Source: Escherichia coli
Lineage (GTDB): Bacteria; Pseudomonadota; Gammaproteobacteria; Enterobacterales; Enterobacteriaceae
Length of the DNA: 64,000 bases
Strand: one strand, 5' to 3'
NCBI RefSeq assembly: GCF_050920415.1
Contig: NZ_CP169309.1
In this document: positions 5,246 through 39,790 of the stretch, piece after piece
Layout of the letters: every line of letters begins with the position of its first letter
Position numbering within the stretch: position 1 is the stretch's first letter
The notes under the pieces: model-generated
The model's database searches: none
Told to the model about the DNA's origin: nothing
Seen by the model: only the letters and a program-made list of their open reading frames with translations
Program-made: the position numbers and the translations under genes

Positions 5246-5433
5246 GTAAATTTAGGAGTAATCCTGGAACTTTTTTTGTCGCCCAGCCAATGCTTTCAGT
5301 CGTGACTAATATTCCTTGCGAAGTCTTGTCTGAAGCGGTTTCCGCGATTTTCCTCTGTAAATTGCCGCTGACAAAAAAGATTAAACATACCTTATACAAG
5401 ACTTTTTTTTCATATGCCTGACGGAGTTCACAC

Positions 5434-5601
5434 TTGTAAGTTTTCAACTACGTTGTAGACTTTACATCGCCAGGGGTGCTCGGCATAAGCCGAAGATATC
5501 GGTAGAGTTAATATTGAGCAGATCCCCCGGTGAAGGATTTAACCGTGTTATCTCGTTGGAGATATTCATGGCGTATTTTGGATGATAACGAGGCGCAAAA
5601 A
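5434..5601 (+). promoter_or_regulatory. ompA promoter and 133-nt 5' UTR (Hfq/sRNA and RNase E target region)
   Basis: candidate -35 ttgtaa (5434-5439) and -10 tagact (5456-5461); leader beginning gccaggggtgctcggcataagccg at 5469 matches the ompA leader as I recall it. Confidence 0.65.
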
Positions 5602-6654
5602 ATGAAAAAGACAGCTATCGCGATTGCAGTGGCACTGGCTGGTTTCGCTACCGTAGCGCAGGCCGCTCCGAAAGATAACACCTGGTACACTGGTGCTAAA
5701 CTGGGCTGGTCCCAGTACCATGACACTGGTTTCATCAACAACAATGGTCCGACCCACGAAAACCAACTGGGTGCAGGTGCTTTTGGTGGTTACCAGGTTA
5801 ACCCGTATGTTGGCTTTGAAATGGGTTACGACTGGTTAGGTCGTATGCCGTACAAAGGCGACAACATCAATGGCGCATATAAAGCTCAGGGCGTTCAACT
5901 GACCGCCAAACTGGGTTACCCAATCACTGACGATCTGGACATCTACACTCGTCTGGGTGGTATGGTATGGCGTGCAGACACCAAGGCTAACGTACCTGGT
6001 GGCGCATCCTTTAAAGACCACGATACCGGTGTTTCTCCGGTCTTCGCTGGCGGTGTTGAGTACGCGATCACTCCTGAAATCGCTACCCGTCTGGAATACC
6101 AGTGGACCAACAACATCGGTGACGCACACACCATCGGTACTCGTCCGGACAACGGCCTGCTGAGCCTGGGTGTTTCCTACCGTTTCGGTCAGGGCGAAGC
6201 AGCTCCAGTAGTTGCTCCGGCACCAGCTCCGGCACCGGAAGTACAGACCAAGCACTTCACTCTGAAGTCTGACGTTCTGTTCAACTTCAACAAAGCAACC
6301 CTGAAACCGGAAGGTCAGGCTGCTCTGGATCAGCTGTACAGCCAGCTGAGCAACCTGGATCCGAAAGATGGTTCCGTAGTTGTTCTGGGTTACACTGACC
6401 GCATCGGTTCTGACGCTTACAACCAGGGTCTGTCCGAGCGTCGTGCTCAGTCCGTTGTTGATTACCTGATCTCCAAAGGTATCCCGGCAGACAAAATCTC
6501 TGCACGTGGTATGGGTGAATCCAACCCGGTTACTGGCAACACCTGTGACAACGTGAAACAGCGTGCTGCGCTGATCGACTGCCTGGCTCCGGATCGTCGC
6601 GTAGAGATCGAAGTTAAAGGCATCAAAGACGTTGTAACTCAGCCGCAGGCTTAA
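5602..6654 (+). CDS. ompA: outer membrane protein A
   Basis: [21 protein letters not shown] signal peptide, beta-barrel region, APAPAPAP hinge, C-terminal OmpA-like domain; ORF-track start at 5530 is an in-frame extension into the 5' UTR. Confidence 0.95.
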
Positions 6655-6670
6655 GTTATCGTCTGATAGA

Positions 6671-6698
6671 AAAACCCCGCAGCTGCGGGGTTTTTTTT
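6671..6698. terminator. bidirectional rho-independent terminator between convergent ompA and matP
   Basis: A-run, GC stem ccccgcagctgcgggg (6675-6690), then T8 (6691-6698). Confidence 0.8.
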
Positions 6699-6730
6699 CG
6701 CCTTGCGTAAATTGAACTGACTTTCGACAG

Positions 6731-7183
6731 TTATTCCTTACCCAGCAATGCCTGCAGATCCTGCTTTAGAGAAGACATTTTATTCGCGTATTTCTCTTTG
6801 TTTTCCGCATCTTCAATCAGCTGAACAATCGTTTCAGAAAGCGTTTTACCGCGACGCTGCGCAAGACCAGCCAGACGTTGCCAGACAATAAATTCCAGAT
6901 CGATCGATTTTTTGCGCGTATGCTGGTGTTCCGCATTAAAATGGCGCTTCCGTCTGGCCCGAATGGTTTGCTTCATGCGATTGACCAGTTCCGGATTCAT
7001 ATGCTTGTCAATCCAGCCATTTACCAGCACGGGTTCATTTTCCAGCGAGAGCAACACATCGACGGCTTCCTGGGCGGCACTGGCTTCTATGTAACGGGTG
7101 ATTAACTCCCCTTCGCGGTGCTTCTTCACCAGATACTTCCATTTCCAACCGCTTTCAAGATTTTCAAGTTGTTGATATTTCAT
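6731..7183 (-). CDS. matP: macrodomain Ter organiser MatP
   Basis: 150-aa [29 protein letters not shown]... recognised as MatP (YcbG). Confidence 0.9.
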
Positions 7184-15715: not shown

Positions 15716-17824
15716 TCAGGCTGCGGTAATCAGCCAGCAGTTGTGGATCTGGCGGTTACGGGCGAAATCCTGGGAGAGCGTTTTTTGCGTAATTTCTTGT
15801 GCTTTCAGCCCCAGTTTTGCCAGTCCGTCAAGATCCATTCGGAAGCCACGTTTGTTGTTCGAGAACATGATCGTCCCACCAGCACGCAGCAGACGTTTCA
15901 AATCTTTCATCAGCGCCAGATGATCGCGCTGAACATCAAACGCATCTTCCATTCGTTTTGAGTTAGAGAAGGTTGGCGGATCGATAAAGATCAGATCGAA
16001 CTGTTCATTTGCCTCACGCAGCCACGCCAGGCAATCGGCCTGAATCAGGCGATGCGCACGCCCGGTTAGGCCATTCAGACGCAGGTTGCGTTCTGCCCAC
16101 TCCAGATAAGTACGCGACATATCCACGGTGGTAGTGCTGCGTGCACCGCCTAATCCCGCGTGCACGGTGGCGCTCCCGGTATAAGAGAACAGGTTGAGGA
16201 AATCTTTGCCTTTGCTCATCTGACCGAGCATACGACGGGCGATACGGTGATCGAGGAACAGACCGGTATCGAGGTAATCCGTCAGGTTCACCCACAAGTG
16301 AGCGTTATATTCGGTGACTTCGAGAAACTCGCCCTTCTCGCCCAGTTTCTGGTACTGATTTTTGCCCTTCTGGCGTTCACGGGTTTTCAGCACCAGTTTG
16401 TTTGGCGCAATCCCCAGTACAGAAATGGTTGCAGCGATAATATCGAACAGACGCTGACGCGCTTTGTGCGCATCAATCGTTTTTGGCGGTGCATACTCCT
16501 GCACCACCACCCAGTCGGCATAACGGTCAACGGCAACGTTATACTCCGGCAGATCGGCATCATACAGGCGATAACATTCAATCCCTTCCTGACGTGCCCA
16601 CTTCTCGAATTTTTTGAGGTTCTTACGCAGGCGGTTGGCGTAGTCTTCCGCTACCATTGCCGGTTTGCTGTCTGGTGTGCTTTCGGCAACGTGATAATTT
16701 TTCTGTACGCAGTCCAGCGGGCCGTTTTTCGCCTTGTACTGTTTGTCTGCACGCAGCTGCAGGCAGCTTAGCAGATCCGGCGAGGCACTAAACAAAGAGA
16801 GATTCCAGCCACCGAACTGGTTTTTCATGATTCGGCCCAGCAGGCTATGCAGTGCAATCAGCGCCGGTTCGCTGTCCAGACGTTCACCGTATGGCGGGTT
16901 GCTCAACACTGTACCGTACGGCCCTTTCGGCAGCGGATTGGTCAGTTGCGCAACATCTTTCACCTCAAAGGTAATCAGTTCACCAATCCCCGCAAGACGT
17001 GCGTTAGTGCGCGCACGTTGAATCACCCGGGCGTCGCTGTCCGAACCGTAAAAATGAGAGCTATACTCTGCCAGTCCTTTACGGGCGCGAGCTTGCGCTT
17101 CCGCTTTCACTTCCTGCCAGATAGCTTCATCATGCTGCGCCCAGCCGCTAAAGCCCCAACGCCCACGGTGCAAGCCTGGTGCGCGATCGGTCGCCAGCAT
17201 CGCCGCTTCAATCAGCAACGTACCAGAACCACACATTGGATCGAGCAGCGGTGTTCCCGGCTGCCAGCCGGATCGCATCACAATCGCGGCTGCCAGTGTT
17301 TCTTTGATCGGCGCAATACCAGCACGATCGCGATAGCCACGCAGATGTAAACCATCACCACTGAGATCAAGGGCGATACTGGCAGTTTCTTTATGCAGCC
17401 AGACGTTAACGCGGATATCCGGCGCATCGCGATCAACATTTGGACGCGGCAAATTTTTCCGCGTGAAAGCATCGACGATCGCGTCTTTCACTTTCATCGC
17501 GCCGTACTGGCTGTTGCGAATGGTGTCATTTAAACCACTGAAATGGACAGCGAAGGTCGCGCCAGGATTAAACATCTCTGTCCAGTTGATCGCCTGAACG
17601 CCGAGATAGAGGTCTAAATCACTGTAAACCTTACACTCGCCCAGCGGCAACATAATACGCGAGGCCAGGCGGCTCCACATCAGGCTCTGGTAAACAAGCC
17701 GTGTGTCGCCCTTAAAATGGACCCCACCCTGAACCACCTGGCATTCAACGGCCCCCAGGTTTTCCAGTTCAGTTTTTAACAGCTCTTCCAGCCCACGGGC
17801 CGTACTGGCAAACAGAGAATTCAT
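15716..17824 (-). CDS. rlmL: bifunctional 23S rRNA methyltransferase RlmKL (m2G2445/m7G2069)
   Basis: 702-aa ORF recognised as RlmL (YcbY); stop lies 11 bp upstream of the uup start. Confidence 0.9.
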
Positions 17825-19743: not shown

Positions 19744-20754
19744 TTAGATATGGTTAACGATTTCTTTAATCAGCGGCGGTCCTTTAAAAATAAAACCAGA
19801 ATAAATTTGCACCAGTGAGGCCCCCGCAGCAATCTTTTCACGCGCAGCGATAACCGAGTCAATGCCGCCAACACCGATGATCGGTAAGCGACCGTTTAAT
19901 TCCTGAGACAAACGGCGAATAATTTCGGTGCTTTTTAACTGTAGCGGACGACCACTTAAGCCCCCAGTTTGATCGCAATTTTTCATACCCTGTACCAAAG
20001 AACGATCGAGCGTGGTATTGGTTGCAATAACGCCATCAATATTATGGCGAACTAAACTATCGGCAACCTGGATCAATTCTTCTTCAGAAAGATCCGGCGC
20101 GATCTTCACTGCGATCGGCACATATTTATGGTGCATCGCTTGCAAATCATTTTGCTTATTTTTAATCGCGGTTAAGAGATCATCCAGCGCTTCGCCATAT
20201 TGCAGTGTGCGTAGTCCTGGGGTATTCGGCGATGAAATATTGATGGCGATATATCCCGCATAAGCATAGATTTTTTCCATACAAATCAGATAGTCATCTT
20301 TACCCTGCTCCACCGGCGTATCTTTATTTTTGCCGATGTTAATACCCAGGACGCCATCATAATGGGCTTTTTTTACGTTCTCTACGAGGTTATCAACGCC
20401 AAGATTATTAAAGCCCATACGGTTGATCAAACCTTCGGCATCTACCAGACGAAAGAGACGCGGCTTGTCATTACCTGGCTGTGGACGTGGCGTGACGGTA
20501 CCGATCTCGATAGATCCAAACCCCATCGCGCCTAACGCGTCAATGCACTCCCCGTCTTTATCAAGACCGGCTGCCAGACCAAGCGGATTTTTAAACGTCA
20601 GGCCCATGCAGTTAACAGGTTTCGCAGGCACTTTCTGCCGCACCAGTGCTTCAAACGGCGTTCCTGTAATACGGCGTAATTGCTGAAAAGTAAACTCATG
20701 AGCGCGCTCTGGATCGAGCTGGAAAAGGGCTTTACGAACGAAGGGGTAGTACAT
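19744..20754 (-). CDS. pyrD: dihydroorotate dehydrogenase (quinone)
   Basis: 336 aa from [21 protein letters not shown]... Confidence 0.95.
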
Positions 20755-20839
20755 GAACTCTCCTGGATTCCCGGTGTGCAAACCGGGGGCGTATTATGTG
20801 CGAGTTCGGACCAAAAGGGAATTGACCTGCGGCAAAAAA

Positions 20840-31481: not shown

Positions 31482-32245
31482 ATACTGCTCGTCTGAACCA
31501 GGGCACACCCTTGTTACTCAATGCAGTAAGCAAACATTACGCGGAAAATATCGTCCTGAATCAACTGGATTTACATATTCCGGCAGGTCAGTTTGTGGCG
31601 GTGGTTGGCCGCAGCGGTGGTGGCAAAAGTACCCTGCTGCGCCTGCTGGCAGGTCTGGAAACGCCAACCGCAGGCGATGTGTTAGCGGGTACCACACCGC
31701 TGGCTGAGATTCAGGAAGACACGCGAATGATGTTTCAGGATGCGCGTCTGCTACCGTGGAAATCGGTGATTGATAACGTTGGGTTAGGCCTTAAAGGCCA
31801 GTGGCGCGATGCGGCGCGTCGGGTGCTGGCTGCAGTAGGGCTGGAGAATCGCGCGGAGGAATGGCCTGCCGCACTTTCTGGCGGGCAGAAACAGCGTGTG
31901 GCGCTGGCAAGAGCGTTGATTCATCGACCGGGTTTATTATTGCTTGATGAACCGCTCGGGGCGCTGGACGCCCTGACTCGGCTCGAGATGCAGGATTTGA
32001 TTGTGTCACTTTGGCAGGAGCACGGCTTTACCGTACTGTTGGTGACGCATGATGTGAGCGAAGCGGTAGCAATGGCGGACCGGGTGTTGTTAATTGAAGA
32101 GGGAAAAATTGGTCTGGATTTGACGGTGGATATCCCCCGTCCGCGCCGATTAGGGTCGGTGCGATTAGCGGAGCTGGAAGCGGAAGTGTTGCAGCGGGTA
32201 ATGCAGCGTGGGCATTCTGAACAACCGATTCGACGTCATGGTTAA
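31478..32245 (+). CDS. ssuB: aliphatic sulfonate ABC ATP-binding protein SsuB
   Basis: 255 aa with Walker [10 protein letters not shown] and LSGGQKQR signature; 4-bp overlap with ssuC. Confidence 0.95.
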
Positions 32246-32248
32246 TAT

Positions 32249-32445
32249 GCCGGATGTGGCGCACAAAACCAGCGGTTTCAACGGATTGTAGGCCTGATAA
32301 GACGCGTCAAGCGTCGCATCAGGCATTTGGGCACGGCTGCCGGATGCGGCGTGAACGCCTTATCCAGCCTACAAAACCAGCATTTTCAACGGACTTGTAG
32401 GCCTGATAAGACGCGTCAAGCGTCGCATCCGGCATTTGGGCTCAA
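32249..32445. repeat. REP/BIME cluster between convergent ssuB and pepN
   Basis: two near-identical ~68-bp units (32265-32332 and 32372-32441) separated by the REP-type sequence gccggatgcggcgtgaacgccttatccagcctac. Confidence 0.85.
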
Positions 32446-38701: not shown

Positions 38702-39790
38702 ATGATGAAGCGCAATATTCTGGCAGTGATCGTCCCTGCTCTGTTAGTAGCAGGTACTGCAAACGCTGCAGAAATTTATAACAAAGATGGCAACAAAGTA
38801 GATCTGTACGGTAAAGCTGTCGGTCTGCATTATTTCTCCAAGGGTAACGGTGAAAACAGTTACGGTGGCAATGGCGACATGACCTATGCCCGTCTTGGTT
38901 TTAAAGGGGAAACTCAAATCAATTCCGATCTGACCGGTTATGGTCAGTGGGAATATAACTTCCAGGGTAACAACTCTGAAGGCGCTGACGCTCAAACTGG
39001 TAACAAAACGCGTCTGGCATTCGCGGGTCTTAAATACGCTGACGTTGGTTCTTTCGATTACGGCCGTAACTACGGTGTGGTTTATGATGCACTGGGTTAC
39101 ACCGATATGCTGCCAGAATTTGGTGGTGATACTGCATACAGCGATGACTTCTTCGTTGGTCGTGTTGGCGGCGTTGCTACCTATCGTAACTCCAACTTCT
39201 TTGGTCTGGTTGATGGCCTGAACTTCGCTGTTCAGTACCTGGGTAAAAACGAGCGTGACACTGCACGCCGCTCTAACGGCGACGGTGTTGGCGGTTCTAT
39301 CAGCTACGAATACGAAGGCTTTGGTATCGTTGGTGCTTATGGCGCCGCTGACCGTACCAACCTGCAAGAAGCTCAACCTCTTGGCAACGGTAAAAAAGCT
39401 GAACAGTGGGCTACTGGTCTGAAGTATGACGCGAACAACATCTACCTGGCAGCGAACTACGGTGAAACCCGTAACGCTACGCCGATCACTAATAAATTTA
39501 CAAACATCAGCGGCTTCGCCAACAAAACGCAAGATGTTCTGTTAGTTGCGCAATACCAGTTCGATTTCGGTCTGCGTCCGTCCATCGCTTACACCAAATC
39601 TAAAGCGAAAGACGTAGAAGATATCGGTGATGTTGATCTGGTGAACTACTTTGAAGTGGGCGCAACCTACTACTTCAACAAAAACATGTCCACCTATGTT
39701 GACTACATCATCAACCAGATCGATTCTGACAACAAACTGGGCGTAGGTTCAGACGACACCGTTGCTGTGGGTATCGTTTACCAGTTCTAA
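38702..39790 (+). CDS. ompF: outer membrane porin F
   Basis: 362 aa [22 protein letters not shown]...; C-terminal Phe. Confidence 0.95.

Follow-up and report, generated by a model that had tools for sequence, protein, structure and literature searches.

The 133-nt leader of Escherichia coli ompA: a conserved promoter, two hairpins and a MicA pairing site in front of the ATG start codon

Does the region in front of ompA in a 64,000-nt stretch of Escherichia coli DNA (the window) represent the long structured leader known for this mRNA, and where does the coding sequence begin? An initial annotation had taken positions 5469-5601 for the ompA 5' UTR with stabilising hairpins and an sRNA pairing site near the ribosome-binding site, and had regarded the ORF start called at position 5530 as a false upstream extension. 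The segment extends over 133 nt from G5469 to A5601 and leads directly into the ATG (5602-5604) of the 350-aa OmpA ORF. The gene order yccS-sxy-sulA-ompA-matP-ycbZ is that of K-12, with the orientation inverted relative to K-12, and the ORFs as well as the K-12 and O157 annotations place the segment directly 5' of ompA in the sulA-ompA-matP context. When positions 5381-5640 were compared with K-12 MG1655, identity was 100% at every aligned base upstream of and into ompA, and the characterised K-12 leader was matched over all of its 133 nt. Of 5426 complete E. coli genomes, 5425 contained the region 5400-5640, and 5423 had it with at least 99% identity.

A "133 nt ompA 5'-untranslated leader" was described by Urban & Vogel in 2007, whose fusion cloned from a 5'-RACE product is the -133 full-length construct (PMC1807950). 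The 100% identity to K-12 together with this published length confirms that the leader is the ompA 5' UTR, and the coordinates and length given for it in the initial annotation were exact. Comparison with the published leader showed agreement both in the length of 133 nt and in the presence of two stem-loops within the first 115 nt (PMC1807950). Positions 5469-5601 are thus almost certainly the 5' UTR of the E. coli ompA mRNA, i.e. the published leader with its known promoter-hairpin-MicA organisation, which is already part of textbook biology. The features of the locus are compiled in the table.

Table. Elements of the ompA promoter, leader and translation start in the window. Identity and invariance refer to 75 distinct upstream regions of Enterobacteriaceae.
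Feature	Position	Strand	Remarks
-35 hexamer TTGTAA, ompA promoter	5434-5439	+	invariant (75/75)
-10 hexamer TAGACT	5456-5461	+	invariant (75/75); ends 7 nt before G5469
Transcription start, +1 G	5469	+	placed by distance to conserved -10, published 133-nt leader and 5'-RACE clone (PMC1807950)
hp1, branched 5'-terminal stem-loop	5469-5531	+	leader nt 1-63; nt 1-3 and 5-8 pair with nt 56-63
hp1, apical part	5483-5514	+	74% identical
GTG of mechanical ORF call	5530-5532	+	false start, in 3' strand of hp1
ss1, single-stranded linker GAAGGAUUUAA	5532-5542	+	part of AAGGAUUUAACC, which runs on into the hp2 base
hp2, second hairpin	5543-5571	+	leader nt 75-103; conserved base CCGUG/CAUGG, variable upper stem
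hp2, upper stem	5548-5566	+	51% identical, yet still paired
ss2, unstructured 3' tail	5572-5601	+	U-run 5576-5579, SD GAGG 5590-5593, A-run 5597-5601
SD/MicA block	5580-5596	+	99% identical, 16/17 columns invariant
MicA sRNA pairing site	5581-5596	+	overlaps SD; duplex with K-12 MicA nt 8-24
ompA coding sequence	5602-6654	+	350 aa plus stop; true start ATG 5602, RefSeq CDS from equivalent base
ompA, first six codons	5602-5619	+	invariant

A search against Rfam 15 returned no family for 5469-5601, neither locally at E-values up to 10 nor at gathering thresholds in a scan of the whole window; the sole overlap with the leader was a chance-level match to plastid psbJ (20 bits vs a gathering score of 65.6). 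Rfam 15 appears to be without a model for the ompA leader. The only matches at gathering level anywhere in the window were the PyrD leader (20749-20822, - strand; 97.9 bits) and naRNA4/CssrE (32291-32369, - strand; 82.2 bits).

The two promoter hexamers are separated by 16 nt. A consensus promoter scan found no promoter on the + strand because each hexamer matches the consensus at only 4/6 positions, which is below the threshold; conservation was therefore used in its place. The assignment of the transcription start to G5469 rests on the literature and on the invariant -35 and -10 hexamers at the right distance, from which a σ70 promoter would direct transcription from this base. The text covered from the supplementary TSS tables of two genome-wide studies contained no ompA entry.

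Two further observations concern the DNA just 5' of the -35 hexamer. The sequence CCTGACGGAGTTCACA at 5417-5432 shows good conservation between genera and looks like a pair of CRP half-sites (TGTGA-N6-TCACA), the right one of which is perfect. Stimulation of ompA transcription by cAMP has been reported. In E. coli IAL7255 (NZ_CM130730.1) the match to the ompA upstream region begins at query base 30, equivalent to window position 5429, and an 'integrase core domain-containing protein' is among the features given for the match, which points to the insertion of a mobile element approximately 5 nt upstream of the ompA -35 hexamer in that strain.

Both hairpins were predicted in the MFE and in the centroid fold of the leader, hp1 as a stem-loop formed from the extreme 5' end and hp2 as a second stem-loop within the first 115 nt. 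Folded alone, hp1 had an MFE of -21.7 kcal/mol (z -2.37; 3 of 200 shuffles folded as well) and hp2 one of -12.1 kcal/mol (z -4.61; 0 of 200 shuffles). The ss1 linker was unpaired in both types of fold, and the tail together with the first codons (5572-5619) was open in the centroid and formed no stable fold (z +0.57). Folding of 5469-5620, proposed as a check in the initial annotation, thus recovered the two hairpins but not a significant total energy (z -0.88); the same held for the energy of 5469-5601 (z -1.86).

Comparative support for the hairpins was sought in 80 ompA loci of Enterobacteriaceae, one genome per species, with OmpA proteins 81-99% identical. Cutting at the base aligned with G5469 gave 75 distinct upstream regions, in which the leader measured 117-145 nt. 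Covariation was counted over 71 distinct leaders from other Enterobacteriaceae and the 29 proposed pairs of the E. coli structure. In a sequence-only MAFFT alignment, 84.6% of the pair cells were paired, as compared with 34-47% when the 3' partners were slid by 1-3 columns; compensatory changes were present in 14 of the 29 pairs, and none of 500 shuffles reached the observed values. After realignment with Infernal the corresponding figures were 86.3% (slid controls 34-48%), 15 of 29 pairs and 0 of 500 shuffles. The Infernal covariance model was built from the MAFFT alignment; as the realignment leans to the structure, the MAFFT figures are the more conservative ones. RNAalifold applied to the raw MAFFT alignment produced a poor consensus of 12 pairs with a spurious long-range closure, because the sequence-only alignment misaligns the interiors of hp1 and hp2; the stated structure with its controls and the Infernal realignment were used instead.

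The support was not uniform along the structure. Each of the 60 distinct hp1 variants had the terminal stem (nt 1-3 and 5-8) paired in its MFE fold; this helix was 99% paired across the relatives, and its G8-C56 pair was replaced by U-A in 17 distinct sequences (one compensatory pair). In the apical helix of hp1 compensatory changes affected four out of five pairs. The middle helix was just 79% paired, and the interior of hp1 is therefore not fixed. For hp2, a hairpin on the conserved base stem was found in nearly all of 53 distinct variants, with quite different upper stems and compensatory changes in 7 of 11 pairs; in a few variants (e.g. L033 and L051) the base stem alone folds. The hairpins claimed by the initial annotation are hence present, with hp1 more stable than nearly all and hp2 more stable than all of their shuffles and a covariation signal that exceeds 500 of 500 shuffles and all slid controls: the structure of hp1 and hp2 is beyond chance. 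As judged from the alignment, the conservation pattern is the one that a promoter, two hairpins constrained in structure and a pairing and ribosome site constrained in sequence are expected to leave.

The ompA leader was reportedly recognised as a target of MicA and Hfq by Udekwu et al. and by Rasmussen et al. in 2005. To locate the site, the micA sequence was taken from the K-12 record and MicA nt 1-26 were paired against 24-nt windows. Complementarity to the 5' region of MicA over approximately 16 nt was found across the SD, in the form of a duplex with 16 bp, one bulged A and an energy of -23.4 kcal/mol, and the sRNA pairing site expected near the ribosome-binding site was thereby located. 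Among 63,976 24-nt windows from both strands of the 64 kb this duplex marks the fourth-best distinct site, its energy being about 5 sd lower than their mean. The sole variable column in the MicA site is C5589, a T in some genera, which would change a G-C pair with E. coli MicA to G-U. Three further sites, at 31727-31750 (+), 38997-39019 (+) and 16455-16476 (-), equal or exceed the ompA site in their pairing energy with the MicA 5' region (-26.5 to -23.3 kcal/mol). They are probably due to chance, and complementarity alone is therefore no proof of MicA targeting. RNAduplex runs with full-length MicA and the whole leader gave huge interior loops, with 43 of 1000 shuffles as good, and were uninformative. 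The published MicA-ompA duplex was proven with compensatory (M6) mutants (PMC1807950), and RNase E-CLASH captured hybrids of MicA and ompA in vivo (PMC5286369).

Between the hairpins, AAGGAUUUAACC (5533-5544) is near-invariant in the 75 leaders; its identity of 99% equals that of the SD/MicA site, while both flanking hairpins vary. Within the ss1 linker, mean identity was 99% and 7 of 11 columns were invariant. The motif contains an SD-like AAGGA located 7 nt upstream of an in-frame GUG (5545) in the hp2 stem. No function is assigned to it in the ompA-leader literature examined, which consists of papers citing the primary work. Conceivably, AAGGAUUUAACC is a dedicated, uncharacterised site, such as (i) a 30S 'standby' or protective SD-like element; (ii) a docking site for another sRNA or a protein; (iii) a required RNase E entry site that sets growth-rate-dependent decay; we consider this doubtful. 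The motif may just as well coincide with the Hfq/RNase E site that Moll et al. mapped in 2003. The Hfq site is missing from a construct that begins at -30 (PMC1807950) and therefore lies upstream of nt 104.

A further conserved single-stranded element is the U-run behind hp2, which is invariant or nearly so in the 75 leaders. With a hairpin followed after 4 nt by UUUU, and with the run so well conserved, 5543-5579 might be taken for an attenuator or pause site at which some transcripts terminate early. This is very improbable, given that the hp2 stem is weak at -12.1 kcal/mol and AU-rich in its upper part, that the U-run is short and set apart from the stem, that the terminator scan gave no call, and that attenuation is not mentioned in the ompA-leader literature examined. 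Moreover, Hfq classically binds hairpins that are followed by a U-run, and this accounts for the conservation with no need of termination; the ompA transcript is known as a full-length mRNA of great stability and high expression (PMC2777011, PMC7509114).

The ORF listing gives 5530..6654, beginning with the GTG 24 codons upstream of and in frame with the ATG. If used, this codon would add 24 residues to the N-terminus of OmpA, and the in-frame GUG at 5545 would add 19. The frame from GTG 5530 to ATG 5602 is indeed open in the window, and the SD-like AAGGA at 5533-5537 is located 7 nt upstream of GUG 5545. Nevertheless, such an extension is hardly credible. Among the leader lengths of the 75 relatives the three frames are represented evenly (27/26/22). 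The most distant start codon in frame with the ATG may be as far as 111 nt upstream or may be lacking altogether, and in eight relatives a stop codon closes the frame 15 nt ahead of the ATG, with no start upstream. The upstream extension is not conserved and therefore not coding. In addition, both GUGs are located inside stems (the hp1 3' strand and the hp2 base), and a canonical GAGG is positioned 8 nt upstream of ATG 5602. OmpA of the window is 97% identical to K-12 OmpA with the same signal peptide start, and the signal peptide and the RefSeq CDS both begin at the ATG. With the RefSeq start at the ATG in K-12 and O157:H7 and an upstream frame that is not conserved, the initial annotation was right to dismiss the 5530 start; judged by this comparison, the extension from GTG 5530 is a mechanical artefact and non-coding.

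That the leader is long, structured, strongly conserved and without an Rfam family could also bring to mind an uncatalogued riboswitch or RNA thermometer, an idea with next to no probability: the SD/start region is unstructured in every fold and there is therefore no sequestering helix to open, the conserved single-stranded parts are short linear motifs, the hairpin interiors are free in sequence and length (leaders of 117-145 nt), unlike a ligand pocket, and known protein and sRNA mechanisms explain the conserved parts.

Additional sites were observed in and around the ompA coding region. At 5626-5633 (ompA codons 9-11), GCAGUGGC is a perfect complement to the 5' end of K-12 RybB (GCCACUGC); the RybB/ompA duplex has -17.5 kcal/mol, which places it among the best 0.08% of the 20-nt windows from the 64 kb. 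By its complementarity, this site fits the idea that ompA is also a target of RybB, a second σE-dependent sRNA, at a point shortly behind the start codon. Targeting of ompA by RybB has been reported for Salmonella. The OmpA allele of the window comprises 350 aa as compared with 346 in K-12; its loop 2 has DNI where K-12 has SVE, and its loop 3 is longer by 4 residues. Positions 5850-6050, which encode loops 2 and 3, were at least 99% identical in just 13 of 5426 E. coli genomes and covered to at least 80% in just 2975, so that a highly polymorphic loop region stands next to a frozen leader 250 nt upstream (at least 99% in 5423 of 5426). The polymorphism of loops 2 and 3 is probably selected by phages and the immune system. 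Finally, the segment 6670-6698 between the convergent genes ompA (+) and matP (-) reads AAAAA-CCCCGCAGCUGCGGGG-UUUUUUUU and forms a perfect palindromic hairpin with A- and U-runs at its flanks. It is probably a bidirectional intrinsic terminator; the terminator scan did not call it, and it explains all sub-threshold Rfam matches at 6587-6739.

For the 5' UTR as identified here, the arrangement of its elements is compatible with the following course of events. A stem that begins with the very first nucleotide (hp1), followed after an 11-nt linker by hp2, would make the ompA mRNA unusually long-lived, as the two hairpins would leave no unpaired 5' end accessible to RNase E or to 5'-end-dependent decay. 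Emory et al. (1992) are said to have shown that hp1 acts by shielding the 5' end against this type of decay. The last 30 nt, unstructured and containing the SD GAGG next to the start codon, would be occupied in fast growth by ribosomes that protect the mRNA. In stationary phase or under envelope stress, σE-dependent MicA together with Hfq would pair with 5581-5596, block the 30S subunit and expose the mRNA to RNase E.

The first 115 nt of the leader, with two stem-loops, act as an mRNA stabilizer in vivo (PMC1807950). In a plasmid-borne gfp fusion whose stem-loop I was destroyed (ompA-95), the levels of fusion mRNA and protein were unchanged (PMC1807950), and the stabilising role of hp1 is therefore context-dependent. 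In the accepted mechanism, elements of the 5' UTR and ribosomes bound at the SD keep ompA mRNA stable, whereas in stationary phase MicA and Hfq block the 30S subunit, whereupon RNase E degrades the mRNA (PMC2777011, PMC7509114). Hfq binding, RNase E cleavage and the longer half-life of ompA mRNA are likewise taken from the literature (PMC2777011, PMC1807950, PMC7509114, PMC5286369).

The ompA leader is one of the model systems on which the study of mRNA stability and sRNA control in bacteria was founded, and its presence in the window carries little weight as a discovery. The value lies in annotation: 5469-5601 can be labelled as ompA 5' UTR with a MicA site, and the ORF start should be moved from 5530 to 5602. 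As a by-product, a structural alignment of 80 sequences with covariation was easily built, though the leader is absent from Rfam 15.

Among known systems, the Gram-positive ermC, aprE and gsiB leaders (stabilizers of the 5'-terminal stem-loop and 'STAB-SD' types) resemble that of ompA in that a 5'-proximal structure or an SD-bound ribosome protects the mRNA irrespective of productive translation (PMC7509114). They belong to other organisms with other nucleases (RNase J/Y rather than RNase E) and have no sequence relationship to the ompA leader. Further parallels are ompC/MicC and ompF/MicF, where, as with ompA, the mRNA of an abundant outer-membrane protein is paired in or close to its RBS by an Hfq-dependent antisense sRNA; their duplexes are described as extended and imperfect, and their leaders are shorter, with 81 and 50 nt in the constructs used (PMC1807950). 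Among these constructs, a long stabilising 5'-terminal stem-loop was described only for ompA (PMC1807950). The direct counterpart is the K-12 ompA 5' UTR, the 'ompA mRNA stabilizer' of Belasco and co-workers, which has the same sequence, 133-nt length, promoter, hp1, hp2, SD and MicA site; the leaders do not differ, and only the downstream OmpA coding sequence does, in surface loops 2 and 3.
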